From an uncultured Planctomycetota bacterium (GTDB taxonomy: Bacteria > Planctomycetota > Phycisphaerae > Tepidisphaerales > Tepidisphaeraceae), in assembly GCA_963841915.1 (NCBI GenBank), contig CAWJEN010000004.1:64001-128000 (forward strand): a stretch of DNA of 64,000 bases, given 5' to 3'. Within the stretch, counting starts at the first letter, position 1. Each line of letters begins with the position of its first letter. Both the position numbers and the translations under genes were made by a program. Positions 17,952-24,881 of the stretch are shown here, one piece after another. The notes below the pieces were generated by a model that ran no database searches, was not told the origin of the DNA, and saw only the letters and a program-made list of their open reading frames with translations.

Positions 17952-19314
17952 TCATTCATTCGCAGGTGCCATCCGAACGAAACCACTTTGCACGATTGGC
18001 GTCGGCGGATTGGCCGGCAGGATGATGGAGAACGTCGCGCCGCCTCCGGGCTCGCTCTCGACTTCAAGCCTCGCCTCGAGCAGATCGGCTGCGCAACGGG
18101 CGATGAACAGGCCAAGCCCCGAACCGCCTGAGGTGTGGCTGCCAGCGCCACGATGGAATCGGTCGAAGAGTGTGGATGCCTGCCCCTCGGCGAGGCCGGG
18201 ACCACAGTCGCAGACGCTGATACGGGTACCGCCATCGTCACCGACGGACTCTTCGTGCTTCAGGGTGATTGGTCCCGCATCGCCGGCATACCGGATCGCA
18301 TTTCTTAGGAAGTTCAGCAGGATGCTCGTCAGCAGGTCGGGGTCCGTCTCGACAAGGACCGTCGGCTCACAGCTGACGAACACGACAGCTTTGTCCGTAT
18401 CCTCATCACCGCAAAGGTCTTCTGCAAGAACGGCGTCTGCCGATCGCGCGACGGCTCTTGCGACGCCGGCCATCAGAGGTGCCAGCTCCACCTTCCGCGG
18501 TTTGACTGTCACCGCCGCCGCACCGGCCCGAAGACGCTCGGCCTCGAGCACTCGCGTCATCGTGTGCAGCGTCCCGTCAATTAAGTGACGTGCATCAGTC
18601 GCGTCGCGGGCAAGCTCGCCTGCCTGCTCGGTCGAAAGATCGTTACTCGCAAGCCCGCGGCTGATGAGCCCGAGCGAGAGGGTCGCGCCGCTCAGTGCTC
18701 CTCGAAGATCATGCGACAATGCCGCCAGGAAGCGGCTCATGGCCTCTGCCTCCAGACGCGCCCGCTGCTCCCGCAGGTCGGCAAAGCTCACGGCCGACGC
18801 TGCACCGAGTTCATCGAGCAGGGCGTGAATCAGATCCGACTCCCGCGAGTTCGGTCGACGTCCTAACTCCTCGCGCAGAGAGTATTTGACGCTGTGACGC
18901 AGCACCGCGTTGCCGACGAGCAGTTCACCCGTCGTGAAGTCCTGCCCGTATCGAGCGACTGCGTGAGCGGTGCCTGCGAGTCGAAACTCGACGGCCGGCC
19001 GCACGCGACGATCGGCCTCTCCCACTTCAGACTCCGGCCGGATGATGCGGACCATGGCGTCGATGCACGTCACCAGGTCGTCCAGTACGCCCGCATCAGT
19101 CAAGCCCTTCGTGCTGGCGACAGACTTGCGAAGGGCGTCGACGTGCCGCGCACAAATCCTCGCCTCTGAGGCTTCTACGCGCCTCGGCCAATGCGTGACG
19201 TTCCTCCTCGTCCAGCTCATCAAGGAGTTCGAGGACTACATTGTGACCGATGGGCGAAGAAACGTCCGTCGAAAAGTCGCTCACCACGCCCCCGGGTTGG
19301 ATGATTGTTTGCAT
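17952..19314 (-). CDS. Cytoplasmic sensor histidine kinase; probable one-base frameshift near 19179
   Basis: H-box ALSHDLRGAL, N-box NFLRNAIRY, DCGPGL, GGSGLGL. The upstream ORF 19096..19314 joins in frame (..RHALAEA|VEASEAR..) if one base is removed. Confidence 0.75.
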
Positions 19315-19399: not shown

Positions 19400-20161
19400 T
19401 TAGTTCCGGCTACTGCGGAAAATCACCCAGAGGATTTTCGTGCCGGCCATGAAGGTGCCGCGGACGGTTCCCGTGATCTTGCTGACGCCGATCCGCTGGC
19501 GGTACTTTGCGGGAACTTCGCGACAGCGAAGGCCGAGCTTGGCCGCCTTGACCTGCATCTCGACCGTCCAGCCGTAGGTCGTGTCGGCCATCTTCATCTG
19601 TTGCAATGCCGCCCATGAGACGCACCGGAACGGGCCTAAATCGGTGAATGTCTCGCCGTACAGCTTGCGGATCAGGAAGCATGCCAGCTTGTTGCCAAAG
19701 ATCGCCTGCGGGAGCAGGGCACCCTTGGGCTGCCTGGTCAGCATCCGACTGGCCAGCACCAGGTCGGCCTCACCTGCGACGACGGGGCCGACCACCTCGC
19801 CGAGCTGGTCAGGGTGGTCGCTGAAGTCGGCGTCGATGAAGGCAACGGCCTGCGGTGGATCCTTTGCAATTTCCGCTAATGCCGCCAGACATGCTGACCC
19901 GTAACCCTGTTGGGTGGCCGGTACGACGGTCGCGCCGAACTTGCGGGCGACATCTGCGGTGTAATCCGTCGAGTTATTGTCCGCTACGACGACGCGGCAG
20001 TGCCAACGCTCGGGCAGTGCGTCAATCACGCGGCCGATGCTCGCCTCCTCGTTCCACGCCGGAATGACAACGGCCACGTCGGCCCGCTCCGACTTGACGA
20101 CGCTGGTGGTTCGTACGTCGGCTTGGTCGAGCGCGGCCATAAGAAAGGTTATGGCCGTCAT
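19400..20161 (-). CDS. Glycosyltransferase family 2 (DPM1-like polyprenol-phosphate glycosyltransferase)
   Basis: VIPAWNEE, DNNSTD, GYGSAC, FIDADFSD, TDLGPFR, RIGVSKITGT. Confidence 0.9.
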   Translation of the reverse strand: MTAITFLMAALDQADVRTTSVVKSERADVAVVIPAWNEEASIGRVIDALPERWHCRVVVADNNSTDYTADVARKFGATVVPATQQGYGSACLAALAEIAKDPPQAVAFIDADFSDHPDQLGEVVGPVVAGEADLVLASRMLTRQPKGALLPQAIFGNKLACFLIRKLYGETFTDLGPFRCVSWAALQQMKMADTTYGWTVEMQVKAAKLGLRCREVPAKYRQRIGVSKITGTVRGTFMAGTKILWVIFRSSRN

Positions 20162-20218: not shown

Positions 20219-20653
20219 GTGGCAAGTCGCCGATCCAGCTTCGTATCGCATTGCCGCGTGATTGGTGGCACGGTGCTGGTTTGGACGGCGACGCTGGCTT
20301 ACCTGTTGCTCCCAGCTGCAAACGCCGTCCACGCGGTTGCACACACTGCCGAGCATCACGACGAGCATGTGGCGGTCGACGACGTTGCGGATGAACCAGC
20401 TTCATCCCACGGATCCGATTCATCCCACGGATCTGCGTCGCATGAAACACCGTCACACGATCATTCGGATGAGTCGTGTCAGACGTGCTTGCTCCTGACC
20501 AACGCCGGCAGCCTCGCGACGATCGGCATCGTGGCCCCGGCCGTTCTGCCGGACCCGCCGACCTTCGCGGCTGAGTTAGTCATCGTCGAATGCGTTGCCT
20601 GCGACCGTGCCACGCCCGCGCAGCCGCGTGGACCGCCTGCCATTCTTCTTTAA
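20219..20653 (+). CDS. DUF2946-like His-rich CxxC protein with C-terminal RGPP motif (putative metal-sensing leader/arrest peptide)
   Basis: Hydrophobic signal-like N-terminus, 10 His in about 45 residues, CQTC and CVAC, ends PAQPRGPPAILL*. Start at GTG 20219 inferred. Confidence 0.75.
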   Translation: MASRRSSFVSHCRVIGGTVLVWTATLAYLLLPAANAVHAVAHTAEHHDEHVAVDDVADEPASSHGSDSSHGSASHETPSHDHSDESCQTCLLLTNAGSLATIGIVAPAVLPDPPTFAAELVIVECVACDRATPAQPRGPPAILL

Positions 20654-20795
20654 CGTCAGCCGGGCGATTCTGCCAAGGCTGCGTCTGCGTGTCGTTGGTT
20701 CGCCCGAGCCGCTACACGTCCCTGCTGAGCTTGCGTTGGCCGATCACATCACGTGATGTTGCTGCGCCGCTTTCGCCTCTCGTTTGAGACACATC

Positions 20796-21599
20796 ATGAA
20801 CACTCGCCTCCACCGGGCCGGCTTCACGCTGGTCGAGTTGCTCGTCGTCATCGGCATCATCGCGTTGCTCGTCGGCATTCTCCTGCCGACGCTCGCCAGT
20901 GCTCGCGTTTCCGGCCAGGCAGTCGTCTGTGCCAGCAACATGCGACAGCTCGGGACGGCCATCACGCAGTACTGCGATGACAACGGCGAGCGATACCCGC
21001 AGGGCAGACACGATTCGGGGACTAATGCCTGGAATTCGTGGATTCACACGCTCTCGCCATACGTCGGCGATGTCGACGAGATTCGCCTGTGCCCGGCTCA
21101 CGAGCGTGGGCATGAGTGGCTCGACGACAGCAACAACACGCTCACCGTCACGCCTGAAGGCGACTCCTACACGACAGGCAAAGGCACGAGCTACAAGCTC
21201 AACATCTACATCATCGAGCCGGTCGAGCGACAAGTTGGCCTGACCTTCCTCGAGGTGGCTGATTTCACGCGGCGCTCCACGATTCCGAGTTCGACTGAAG
21301 CGATTCTGGCCTTCGAGACGAGCGATCGCATCGTTGAGTACGACGAGGCGGCCGACCACACGCACAGCAACGAATGGTTCTTTTCTGCCGACGCCAATGA
21401 CCGTTGGCAAGCGGTGCTCGACGACATCCAGCCCGATCGTCACGCCACGACCACCACGCCGGATCGCGACGAGGGACGCTCGAACGTCCTGTTCGCCGAC
21501 ACGCACGTCGCCCCGCTGCAGGCGGGCAAGGTCCGGCAGGACATCCGCGACAACTTCAACTTCGCCTACCCGCCCGGCCACCCGACCTCCCCGAACTAG
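20796..21599 (+). CDS. Prepilin-type N-terminal cleavage/methylation domain protein (DUF1559 / H-X9-DG-like)
   Basis: [35 protein letters not shown]-terminal RH...SNVLFADTH; internal DHTH. Confidence 0.9.
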
Positions 21600-21605
21600 C
21601 ACGCC

Positions 21606-22607
21606 ATGCGCACCCTCACAACCTCCCTTGCTGTTCTCGCTACCACGACCGCTGCCAGCGCCATCGACATCCGTCTAGCCAGCGGCGTCGTGCCTCTGAC
21701 CTTCGCAGTCGAGACCCAGATCCCCGGCTCGCAGCCGCTCGATAACGCCCACGTCGACGTCCAAACGCCTTACCAGGCAGGCGGCTCGTTCGGCAGCCGC
21801 TACCAGACGGTCGGCACCGAACCCGCAGGCACCCCGGGTGACAGCCACCTTGTTGTCAATCCGACCAATCGTCTCAACCTCGACGCCGGTGGCCTTGCCA
21901 ACTTCGACTTCATCGGCGCGACGCCCGACGAAGATTTCTGGCTCCTGCCCCAGGGGCAAAGGCCCGGCGGGTTGAACTACCTCTACCTCGGCGTTGCCGC
22001 CGACGCCGTCTCGCAGGGGGCCCGCAACGAGATGGTGCCGTGGAATCCGCAGGATGCCCGCGTCTCCAGTACACCTAACCGCTGGATCGAGTGGCAGCTC
22101 AGCGACGTGCAGTCGCCCAGCGGCAACGGTGACTTTGCCGTGTTTCAACTTTCCAGCGGAGGCGGCAGCACCGTCTTCATGAGCACCGTCGACAGCATCA
22201 CCAGCGACGACCAGCTTTGGATGGCAGCCGGCAGCCACGGCCATTACAACTGGTCCTTCACCGAGCAGGGCGTATGGACCGTCGAAATCAGGGCCTTCAC
22301 CCGCGTCGACCTCGATGTCCTGCCGGGCGACGCCAACCTGGACGGCACGGTCAGCATCCTCGACTTCGCCATCCTGCGGGCCAACTTCGGTAGCGGCAAC
22401 AGTGCCTTCAACCTCGGCGACCTCAACGATGACGGCGTCGTCTCGATCCTCGACTTTGCCATCCTGCGGGCCAACTTCGGCACGAGCCTGACAATCAGTC
22501 AGCTCGCAGCCGTGGACGCCTGGTACGCCACCGTCGTGCCGGAGCCGGCTTTAGCCGGAACCCTCCTTCTGGCCGCAGGCGCATCACTGACGCGTCGGCG
22601 GGTCTGA
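21606..22607 (+). CDS. PEP-CTERM surface protein with TIGR03769-like His domain and dockerin-like duplicated Ca-binding repeat
   Basis: Signal peptide; HVD ... WLLPQ ... YLGV ... HGHYNWSFTEQGVWTV; two GDxNxDGxVSILDFAILRANFG repeats; VPEP-TM-RRR. Confidence 0.8.
   Translation: MRTLTTSLAVLATTTAASAIDIRLASGVVPLTFAVETQIPGSQPLDNAHVDVQTPYQAGGSFGSRYQTVGTEPAGTPGDSHLVVNPTNRLNLDAGGLANFDFIGATPDEDFWLLPQGQRPGGLNYLYLGVAADAVSQGARNEMVPWNPQDARVSSTPNRWIEWQLSDVQSPSGNGDFAVFQLSSGGGSTVFMSTVDSITSDDQLWMAAGSHGHYNWSFTEQGVWTVEIRAFTRVDLDVLPGDANLDGTVSILDFAILRANFGSGNSAFNLGDLNDDGVVSILDFAILRANFGTSLTISQLAAVDAWYATVVPEPALAGTLLLAAGASLTRRRV
22356..22480 (+). repeat. 35-bp intragenic direct repeat (22356-22390 and 22446-22480) encoding the dockerin-like pair
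   Basis: ATCCTCGACTTYGCCATCCTGCGGGCCAACTTCGG twice, one mismatch. Confidence 0.85.
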
Positions 22608-22655
22608 TGTTCTGTTATCGCTTATTTCTCAATCCGTCTTCCGGAGACCCTGAAC

Positions 22656-23363
22656 ATGCACGCTTCCACCATCATCGCCCTCGCCGCCGCTTCTGCGGCA
22701 ACACCCGTCCTTGCCCAGACCAACCTTGACGGCGGCCACTTCGACATCGAAGTCGAGACCGTCTTTGGCCCCAACGGAACCGTCGAGGAGATCGAGCTCA
22801 TTCTCGCTAACGAGGACGAGGGCAACCCGCCGTTCCCGTCCATCGGTGAGCTCGAGGCCGACGAGGCCGTTCTCGTGCCCGGCAACATCCGCACGCAAGG
22901 CACCGCACTCGGTGGCATCGCAGCCGGCTCGACCGTCTACTTTGTTCCCGAGCAACAGGACTTCGAAACCCTCTGGCTCGGGATCGGTAGCGAAGAAACT
23001 GGTGCCGGCGTGATCGTCGAAGATCAATACGTCCTGAATCTTGTCGGTTACACCGGCCCGGGCACCTTCGTCGTCAGCCAGGCCAGCCTCGGCGGGCCGA
23101 TCATCAGCATCGACACCAGCGACGGCCTCACAGGCGATGCGCTGATCGCCAGCACCGTCGGTGACAGCCACTACGACTTCGCCTTCGACACCATCGGCAC
23201 CTACGAGCTGACGTTCGAAGCAACCGGCACGCTCACTCCCGCCTTTGGCGGCGGTAATGTCTCGGCAATCTCCACCTACACGTTCTCCGTTGTGCCCGAG
23301 CCGACCACGGCAGCAATGGTCGGTCTTGCCGGCCTCGCCATGCTCCGCCGTCGGCGGGCCTGA
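22656..23363 (+). CDS. PEP-CTERM surface protein with TIGR03769-like domain
   Basis: Signal peptide; LDGGHFDIE ... YFVPE ... LWLGIGSEE ... SHYDFAFDTIGTYELTFEATG; VPEP-TM-RRRR; GGAG SD. Confidence 0.8.
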   Translation: MHASTIIALAAASAATPVLAQTNLDGGHFDIEVETVFGPNGTVEEIELILANEDEGNPPFPSIGELEADEAVLVPGNIRTQGTALGGIAAGSTVYFVPEQQDFETLWLGIGSEETGAGVIVEDQYVLNLVGYTGPGTFVVSQASLGGPIISIDTSDGLTGDALIASTVGDSHYDFAFDTIGTYELTFEATGTLTPAFGGGNVSAISTYTFSVVPEPTTAAMVGLAGLAMLRRRRA

Positions 23364-23375
23364 ATTGCACACGGA

Positions 23376-23449
<74 letters not shown>

Positions 23450-23511: not shown

Positions 23512-24840
23512 TCAGCGAAGGTAGTTCCGCCATGCCTGGACGAGGCCTTCGTAGTTGACGCCGTACAGCTCTTGCAGCAGTGCTTCCGTCTCTTCGCCGG
23601 CCTTGATGCGGTCGACCATCTGCACGAACCGGGCCGGATCTTCGTGGTACAAGGCGGCCGTCATCGTGTACATGACCGGGTACAACTCTGCACCAGGCAT
23701 GTAGCTGTCGTCAAACAGCCGCTCGAGGTTGTCGTTGCTGCGGGCGAACTGCCTGGCGGTTTCGATCGCGTTCGGCCGCTGCATGACGTTCTCGGCCAAC
23801 ATCTCGGCCAGCCCTTCGTTCATCCACCGCGGAATGTGGCGTTCGCCTCTATAGCGGGCCAGAAACGCATGGACGAACTCGTGCGTGAGCGTGCGGGCCC
23901 AGCGGATCCGTGCCTGCTGCAGGCCGACCTGATTGGTCGCTGACGGCTTGCTCATGACGAGCTTGTTGAGCCCACCGGGACGCGACGTGTGGTAGCCGGC
24001 AACCGTGTCACTGGCCTCAAACCGATCGAACTCCCGCGCGTAAGCGATCATGTCCTTCGATGAATGAAACATGTAAACGGGCATGCGTCCGACGAAGACT
24101 GTGTCGTCCTCGGCCACGTGAAACTCTCGGGCGAGCAGGGCGTACGCGTCTTCGAGTCGGGCCGTCAGCCACGCGTCGTCGATCGGGTCCCAGTCGGTGT
24201 AGATGACAAAGTGCGGCGTGTAGACCTGGCGTAGCCGCAGATTCAACTGCTTCGAGGCATCGAGCGCCTCGACCTCCGCCAGCCGCTCGGCCTCGGCGGC
24301 CGCTTCAGGAGTCACCGGTAAGAACTTCGGCGGCAGCTCCTGCTCGGGCGGCGTGAGCACCTCGACCTCAGGCAAGGCCGCGTCGGTATCCGGGACGATT
24401 TCGGCAGGTGGAAATCCGCGAAGCGTGTTCAACGGCCGGGCAAGTGCCGCGTCGATGTCTGCCTCTCGATCCGGGGCGAGGCGGCGGGCTCGCGATGCCG
24501 CCCGCGCCGCTTCCTGCTCCGCCCCGATGTCACGACCGAAAACGATCAGCGTGATCCAATCGTCGGCATCTGTCGGCTGGCCCCGCGCCCGCATCACCGC
24601 CAGAAATGCGCTGGAAGGCGAGACGTCGGCCCAGGCGATCTGTCGCTCCTCGCCATTCACGACAAGCGTCATTCCGTCATCATCGATGCCTGACAAGCCG
24701 CCGATGACGCGTCGCGCGTCGGCCGGCTCTGCGGGAAGCGTCACTGCCACCCGGACCGGCGGATCAAAGGTTTGCGGCTCGACACCTTTGGCGGTGCAGG
24801 CGGTGAGCAACACGAACAGCAGGGCGATGCGGAAAGCCAT
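23512..24840 (-). CDS. Secreted gluzincin-type (peptidase MA-like) metalloprotease
   Basis: Signal peptide; THEFVH (HExxH) and PRWMNEGLAE. Confidence 0.8.
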   Translation of the reverse strand: MAFRIALLFVLLTACTAKGVEPQTFDPPVRVAVTLPAEPADARRVIGGLSGIDDDGMTLVVNGEERQIAWADVSPSSAFLAVMRARGQPTDADDWITLIVFGRDIGAEQEAARAASRARRLAPDREADIDAALARPLNTLRGFPPAEIVPDTDAALPEVEVLTPPEQELPPKFLPVTPEAAAEAERLAEVEALDASKQLNLRLRQVYTPHFVIYTDWDPIDDAWLTARLEDAYALLAREFHVAEDDTVFVGRMPVYMFHSSKDMIAYAREFDRFEASDTVAGYHTSRPGGLNKLVMSKPSATNQVGLQQARIRWARTLTHEFVHAFLARYRGERHIPRWMNEGLAEMLAENVMQRPNAIETARQFARSNDNLERLFDDSYMPGAELYPVMYTMTAALYHEDPARFVQMVDRIKAGEETEALLQELYGVNYEGLVQAWRNYLR

Positions 24841-24881
24841 CGTCCGCACTTTACCACGACCGACTACCCTCTGCCGTCACC

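Follow-up and report, generated by a model that had tools for sequence, protein, structure and literature searches.

Organization of the Locus

The 64,000-nucleotide stretch of DNA analyzed here (hereafter the window) comes from an uncultured planctomycete of the Tepidisphaeraceae (contig CAWJEN010000004.1) and carries a cassette of four co-oriented open reading frames (ORFs) on the plus strand: a short leader of the DUF2946/CruR type (20219–20653), a type IV pilin-like protein (20796–21599), and two surface proteins of the choice-of-anchor M family (21606–22607 and 22656–23363). An earlier note, made from the DNA sequence alone, had described four co-oriented genes forming a putative metal-responsive surface locus, and all four ORFs were confirmed where it had placed them. 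A divergent glycosyltransferase gene (19400–20161) bounds the cassette upstream, and a convergent tRNA-Val(CAC) gene on the minus strand (23376–23449) delimits it downstream, lying outside it. The leader is the first gene of a presumed operon, flanked by the divergent glycosyltransferase gene on one side and on the other by an intergenic region of 142 nt (20654–20795, plus strand) that separates it from the pilin; this region is mildly richer in C than in G, and no significant fold and no terminator-like site were found in it.

The Pilin and Its Predicted Surface Partner

The second ORF encodes a His-motif type IV pilin-like protein of a DUF1559/H-X9-DG-like subfamily. The earlier note had called it a prepilin/DUF1559-like protein carrying DHTH, and the pilin half of that description is supported: the N_methyl match (27.4) passes its cut-off of 21.2, DHTH lies at residues 187–190, and the model (predicted local distance difference test [pLDDT] 89.8) has a pilin fold. 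The DUF1559 (PF07596) match, in contrast, covers residues 42–92 only and falls just short of the gathering score (22.8 vs 23.3). When the model was compared with solved structures using VIA, the top seven rows were all pilins, the best being 6xxd_A at a modest Z of 5.7 (root-mean-square deviation 3.5, 121 aligned); Foldseek returned no match for the same model at E 0.001.

A search of 1.84 billion representatives yielded a coherent pilin subfamily. Among 142 sequences of 200–330 aa (the query and its top hits, after 9 of 151 had been removed by length), His72 (codon 21009–21011) is kept in 127, and D187, H188, and H190 of the DHTH segment (21354–21365) in 125, 138, and 126, respectively; the corresponding figures in a second alignment are 85, 85, 85, and 83 of 85. 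Judged by these alignments, the pilin belongs to a subfamily of its own in which H72, D187, H188, and H190 hardly vary; we predict that these residues form a metal site.

Both surface proteins pass the choice-of-anchor M profile NF038134 (66.8 and 64.2; cut-off 55), and both fall under that of TIGR03769 (23.3 and 24.5; cut-off 30.9). Protein 1 carries HxD (H49, D51), HxH (H211, H213), a dockerin-like repeat, and a PEP-CTERM-like tail that scores just below the TIGR02595 cut-off (14.8 against 16); protein 2 passes TIGR02595 (21.3) and carries HxD, with DxH in place of HxH, a substitution shared by the orthologues of this protein within the genus. The dockerin-like repeat and the DxH are corrections to the note's account of its two His-motif PEP-CTERM proteins. 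Of 132 motif matches, 121 have HxH and 5 have DxH; in 56 aligned surface domains H49 is found in all, D51 in 55, H211 in 53, and H213 in 51. The DxH of protein 2 may confer a different affinity or select a different metal. The domain is modeled as a β-sandwich (pLDDT 91.9) with no clear solved relative (none by Foldseek at E 0.001; best VIA Z 4.8), which is no proof of a new fold. Neither protein matched the ZepA/all3515 profile NF040463 at E up to 1, and a contig search with protein 2 gave six loci in which the alignment is confined to the PEP-CTERM tail region.

The same HxD...HxH bracket occurs in ZnuE, ZnuF, ZnuG, and CmrA of Corynebacterium diphtheriae, proteins that are under Zur control and show a shift with zinc (PMC12445094). 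By analogy with these proteins, zinc is the likely ligand of the HxD/HxH sites in the exosortase-anchored surface proteins described here.

Folded together with two zinc ions, the head of the pilin and the domain of surface protein 1 gave a complex score of 0.77, against 0.02 for the best of three controls. The complex passed the mark applied to such scores; 116 of 157 solved complexes attain it, as do 2 of 215 mismatched pairs, figures that are only a rough guide for this purpose. The runs share at least 70% of contacts, and the partner has a pLDDT of 87. At the core of the predicted interface is a pilin β-hairpin (residues 144–153, 21225–21254; family consensus DPFG), with further contacts at pilin residues 71, 73–79, 185–186, and 192–193 and at residues 48–49, 205–210, and 212 of the surface protein. 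These residues flank H72 and D187–H190 of the pilin and include H49 and the neighbors of H211 and H213 of its partner, which would place both His sites at the edge of the modeled interface. On this modeling we think it likely that the pilin and the first surface protein bind one another.

The Leader

The leader starts at a GTG codon and is 144 aa long (an alternative start is possible at a GTG at 20258). It combines a hydrophobic, signal-like N-terminus, a His-rich spacer, CQTC at residues 87–90 (20477–20488), and RGPP at residues 137–140 (20627–20638), with the stop codon four residues later. The Pfam DUF2946 profile (PF11162) matches it above the gathering score (33.3 vs 23.7), and its motifs have the spacing of the family, in agreement with the DUF2946-like assignment originally proposed. 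The other motifs listed in the note were recovered as well, apart from CVAC as a family feature: aligned with nine other leaders, CVAC proved private to this copy and was rejected. All 10 aligned leaders share the first Cys of the CxxC motif, the predicted metal sensor. RGPP, the predicted ribosome-arrest motif, follows CxxC by 46 residues, and across 35 related loci of 15 groups this distance stays within 43–48 (46 in 19 of the 35), while the sequence between the motifs is hardly conserved. When eight related leaders were scanned with PF11162, two passed, two scored below the cut-off, and four gave no match. A variant leader with CP in place of CxxC heads the cassettes of three groups. Such a variant, ending in RAPP, directly precedes genes for ZnuA, an ATP-binding cassette (ABC) ATPase, an ABC-3 permease, a His-pilin, and a multi-domain choice-of-anchor M protein at L084:2338–7683, and occurs at L069 as well.

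The association between leader and pilin goes beyond chance in this organism's own genome. Among 41 pilin-like ORFs recognized there by pattern, both His motifs are present in two; these same two, and no others, are preceded by a CxxC...RxPP leader at a distance of no more than 700 bp.

In CruR, a spacing of 45 separates CxxC from RAPP, and adding five residues abolishes regulation (PMC9426467); arrest at RAPP has been demonstrated in vitro (PMC12992588). By analogy with CruR, the leader described here is probably a metal switch. A search of the plus strand found no promoter-like site, nor was a terminator found after the leader; the leader's 3′ end and the intergenic region together fold no better than shuffled sequences (z 0.62), with no hairpin standing out. 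Rho is encoded in 5 of 5 genus genomes.

Conservation and Distribution of the Cassette

Synteny was assessed in 122 pilin loci, which single linkage at 60% pilin identity places in 42 groups; kin among them do not count as independent cases. A choice-of-anchor M gene adjoins the pilin in 38 of the 41 groups with at least 500 bp downstream, and a leader is present in 17 of the 40 groups with at least 700 bp upstream, being of the CxxC type in 15 groups. All four genus relatives have the complete four-gene order, one of them with frameshifts. The note had proposed to check gene neighborhoods across genomes of the Planctomycetes–Verrucomicrobia–Chlamydiae (PVC) group and had named a lack of conserved synteny or histidines as grounds for refutation; this adjacency speaks in its favor, as does the near-invariance of pilin H72, H188, and H190 and of the surface HxD/HxH motifs. 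The His-pilin is present as one copy in at least 28 of 401 genomes of the same class, and a match was found in at least 10 of 401 in a sample of Verrucomicrobiota; both counts are lower bounds, seven candidates having been scored per genome. Homologues named by NCBI belong to Anaerohalosphaeraceae and Phycisphaeraceae, which agrees with a host from the Phycisphaerae.

Several variations on the arrangement were seen. The frameshifts of the cassette in relative G001 (L019:5215–8074) are possibly sequencing errors of a long-read assembly. A second, paralogous cassette in the organism's own genome (L166:2671–4532, corresponding to G000:C6:1399671–1401532, minus strand) comprises a CxxC/RGPP leader, a His-pilin, and a PEP-CTERM protein with HxH at its predicted mature N-terminus, a later HxH, and a weak likeness to choice-of-anchor M; it is kept in G019 (L169) and may serve another metal. 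Several marine relatives have two tandem His-pilins, and several relatives have multiple tandem choice-of-anchor M domains. A longer operon at L023, L033, L036, L042, L044, and L051 consists of a palindrome, a gene for a His-rich membrane protein of about 240 aa that has no Pfam or NCBIfam match, a Fur-family gene, the leader, the pilin, and two surface genes. At three loci from Planctomycetia (L034:6301–7143, L037, and L038), a single choice-of-anchor M PEP-CTERM gene without a leader is divergent from an ordinary DUF1559 gene; at L037 a palindrome-like stretch, seen by translation only, lies between the two.

Beyond the cassette, the window encodes on its minus strand a histidine kinase (17952–19223; HisKA and HATPase_c, no obvious sensor domain) that adjoins the glycosyltransferase gene and is present in L019 too, and, past the tRNA gene, a secreted HExxH peptidase MA-like protein (23512–24849).

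The Metal

The earlier note had recognized a copper-type leader and left the metal unspecified. The surroundings of related cassettes suggest zinc rather than copper. Among the 42 groups, neighboring genes include Fur-family regulators (12 groups), ZigA-like GTPases (7), metal ABC genes of the ZnuA/ABC-3 type (7, one probably unrelated), and ZepA (2), with profile scores of 623 against 600 for ZigA and 214.5 against 75 for all3515/ZepA. No copper family was found among 72 neighboring ORFs scanned (many of which have no Pfam match), nor among the neighbor families common to several groups.

A palindrome, TGCAA-N5-TTGCA, points the same way. It occurs 16 times in 78 kb upstream of pilin loci and once in 220 kb downstream, a reversed control occurring nowhere, and 15 of 40 groups have a perfect copy upstream. 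It fits the Zur site predicted, as a prediction only, for Desulfovibrio (PMC545781), and the same palindrome lies upstream of zepA in Luteolibacter (supplement of PMC10957091), likewise without experimental demonstration; the text of a Zur review contains no TGCAA motif. In G003 it has a Fur-family gene on one side and a COG0523-like GTPase ORF on the other. The single perfect copy of the palindrome core in the organism's own genome lies inside a gene and was rejected as an operator, and the Cys motifs typical of the Fur family are missing from the only member that this genome encodes. We read the leader as the only metal control evident from the sequence at this locus. In many relatives the cassette has a Zur-type palindrome too, and the control by leader that the note had proposed, although consistent with a CruR-type leader of family spacing, is therefore not by leader alone in the family as a whole.

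Export and Possible Uptake Machinery

No TonB receptor barrel was found in any of the five genus genomes (G000–G004, 80–98% complete; the control rang in 3 of 14). All five encode an exosortase, three PilT-family ATPases over the cut-off, and secretins, and the exosortase supplies the anchoring context that the note had assumed. These genomes also hold many pilin-like and PEP-CTERM genes, the organism's own having, by pattern, about 113 PEP-CTERM tails beside its 41 pilin-like ORFs. A ZnuA/TroA-type ABC operon, a putative metal transporter, lies elsewhere in that genome. The statement that the locus itself has neither a TonB receptor nor an ABC transporter is correct for this cassette; it does not extend to relatives, some of whose cassettes include metal ABC transporters.

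Discussion

We are inclined, if only somewhat, to read the cassette as a leader-controlled zinc capture and hand-off module that serves during zinc starvation. The parts of this reading differ in strength. That the cassette is a zinc module of some kind seems to us highly probable; whether its leader senses zinc we regard as an even call; and the notion that the pilus carries the metal is tentative, with the balance tipped against it.

In the sequence of events that we envisage, low zinc would cause the ribosome to stall at RGPP, termination would be blocked, and the operon would be expressed, as inferred from CruR. The surface proteins would be anchored by the exosortase and would capture zinc in the manner suggested by ZnuE, ZnuF, and ZnuG. 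The His-bearing pilin, predicted to dock on the first surface protein, could then take over the metal, and pilus retraction might carry it inward to the periplasmic ZnuA-type ABC system encoded elsewhere, this being the most speculative step. When zinc is plentiful, metal on the nascent CxxC would release the stall and the operon would be turned off, again on the model of CruR. The full scheme amounts to a pilus-based zinc importer under a zinc-sensing arrest peptide, in which anchored capture proteins pass zinc to a dedicated His-site pilin and retraction moves the zinc through the outer membrane of bacteria that have no TonB receptor; taken as a whole, we consider it unlikely, though worth stating.

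A number of observations weigh against this interpretation. H72, H188, and H190 of the pilin are themselves outside the list of confident contacts; the controls for the complex were unrelated proteins, not other pilin paralogues; the alignments used for the complex come largely from the same loci; and the conservation of the pilin histidines was counted among hits chosen for similarity to the query. The Zur-type palindrome is absent from this locus and from the cassette of the four genus relatives, no zinc gene was found adjoining this locus, and COG0523 was not found in the organism's own genome (94% complete). The zinc call for this locus consequently depends on the relatives, whose Fur-family neighbors are assigned by sequence to the family only, their identity as Zur being putative. 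Of 40 groups, 9 have both leader and palindrome, so that the leader may read a signal other than Zur's, and 17 have neither. Around RGPP, C exceeds G only slightly at this locus (41 C, 32 G), and in some relatives G is the commoner of the two. Both characterized DUF2946 leaders, CruR and CutF, sense copper, the effect of zinc on the CruR target being only moderate. In Corynebacterium, triple His-to-Ala mutants of the surface proteins still shifted with zinc, and ZnuF and ZnuG lowered growth instead of helping it (PMC12445094).

The strongest alternative, unlikely in our judgment, keeps the zinc module and makes the pilin an adaptor for export or display, which would pass the surface protein through a secretin or onto a fibre, with zinc entering by another route (porins and periplasmic ZnuA). 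Synteny and predicted binding are accounted for equally well by an adaptor; a pilin gene also adjoins an unrelated PEP-CTERM gene at L031; and the abundance of pilin-like ORFs and PEP-CTERM tails in the organism's own genome is in its favor. An adaptor, however, would have no need of an invariant His/Asp set, which only 2 of the 41 pilins in that genome possess and which, in the predicted complex, borders the interface beside the His site of the partner.

It is improbable that we are dealing with a standard copper-sensing CruR at the head of a module for copper (or another metal such as nickel or cobalt), or with a leader that feeds a copper input into a zinc module. The motifs and spacing do equal those of CruR (46 vs 45), CruR and CutF are copper-specific, the Zur-type palindrome is missing from this locus, and the best fold matches of the surface domain, weak as they are, are cupredoxin-type sandwiches. 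Those matches have Z values of 4.8 or less, and values under 5 are within the range of chance; moreover, it is ZigA, ZnuA/ABC-3, ZepA, and Fur-family genes that recur beside the cassettes, and the neighbor scans described above turned up no copper family.

We give very little credence to the suggestion that, in the manner of SecM or ApdP, what the leader senses is not metal but secretion or the formation of disulphides in the periplasm, coupling synthesis of the pilin and surface proteins to export capacity: its signal-like N-terminus, the presence of RAPP/RGPP peptides before sec and thioredoxin/DsbA genes as well (PMC12992588), and the nine groups having both leader and palindrome speak for it, but the fixed CxxC-to-RxPP spacing is that of the CruR class, and in the organism's own genome the leader marks the His-pilins only and not the other 39. 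Least probable of all is that the surface proteins are simply a zinc sink or buffer (for storage, competition, or protection) with no role in transport, as ZnuF and ZnuG appear to be; those two lower growth in the absence of the importer (PMC12445094), and several relatives have tandem domains, but ZnuE, with the same motif, is required for growth under zinc limitation (PMC12445094), and the linkage to a dedicated pilin is tight.

PVC bacteria encode dozens of pilin-like paralogues of unknown use, and the cassette gives one subfamily a candidate ligand, partner, and set of residues, so that pilin function could be put to the test with two small soluble domains. The cassette further suggests a possible route of trace-metal uptake for a genus without a detectable TonB receptor, and its leader is a candidate for zinc responsiveness within a class so far demonstrated for copper only. 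If the full scheme of a pilus-based importer is correct, the many DUF1559-like pilins of PVC bacteria would be substrate-specific carriers, each with its own surface protein, and the CruR class would gain its first post-transcriptional switch for zinc.

Comparison with Known Systems

The component parts are of known kinds. The earlier note knew of no description of the combination, and none of the whole was found in the literature searched (most subscription papers being outside its scope). One piece of it is in print: the adjacency of leader and DUF1559 gene is tabulated in the 2025 source data of PMC12992588, where DUF1559 genes are enriched behind RAPP leaders (112 vs 68, adjusted p 1e-31), without interpretation in the main text as accessible. 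The same source data annotate a zinc-regulated TonB receptor after a CxxC/RAPP leader in 9 of 26 "zinc" rows; the word zinc is absent from the accessible main text. The supplements of the CruR paper have no DUF1559, N_methyl, or PEP-CTERM entries.

The closest relative of the leader is CruR (Bp2923, PF11162) of Bordetella pertussis (PMC9426467), which is likewise first in its operon, has an export-signal-like N-terminus and a CxxC that is followed at about 45 residues by a C-terminal RxPP, and precedes a long intergenic region and metal-acquisition genes. It differs in having RAPP instead of RGPP, in its metal context, which here is zinc, and in its targets, a TonB receptor and a PepSY protein as opposed to a pilin and PEP-CTERM proteins; the C-over-G bubble is weak here, and in place of the copper-homeostasis genes typical downstream of CruR-family leaders, zinc-type neighbors are found in relatives. 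CutF of Rhodobacter capsulatus (bioRxiv 10.1101/2025.02.05.636593) is also a secreted leader of the DUF2946 type and controls the next gene by stalling. Unlike the leader described here, CutF stalls with copper at PPP, opens a stem-loop that holds a ribosome-binding site, and turns on detoxification; no significant hairpin was found at our locus, and its targets resemble acquisition genes.

The surface proteins share with ZnuE, ZnuF, ZnuG, and CmrA (PMC12445094) an HxD and an HxH about 150 residues apart, surface anchoring, and a zinc context, the link being the motif and NF038134. They differ from these proteins in their diderm host, in the use of exosortase in place of sortase, in having a pilin as partner instead of an adjacent ABC transporter, and in the DxH of the second copy. 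Nor is this an anchored-repeat ABC system of the TIGR03769 kind, given that both scores fall below the cut-off and that the locus has no ABC genes. ZepA (All3515) of Anabaena (PMC10957091), an exoprotein for zinc uptake under Zur, is also a PEP-CTERM protein; two related cassettes include homologues of it, and related cassettes share their palindrome with a verrucomicrobial zepA promoter. Its domain is a different one, however, with only the C-terminal strand and tail aligning, and the outer-membrane receptor proposed for ZepA was not found in the genus considered here. Finally, the pilin resembles the DUF1559/H-X9-DG prepilin-like proteins of PVC bacteria in its N-terminal methylation motif, its type IV pilin fold, and a C-terminal H-X9-D(G/T)H-like segment, and it is set apart from them by its invariant His/Asp set, its occurrence as one copy in each genome where the class search found it, and its fixed linkage to choice-of-anchor M proteins.

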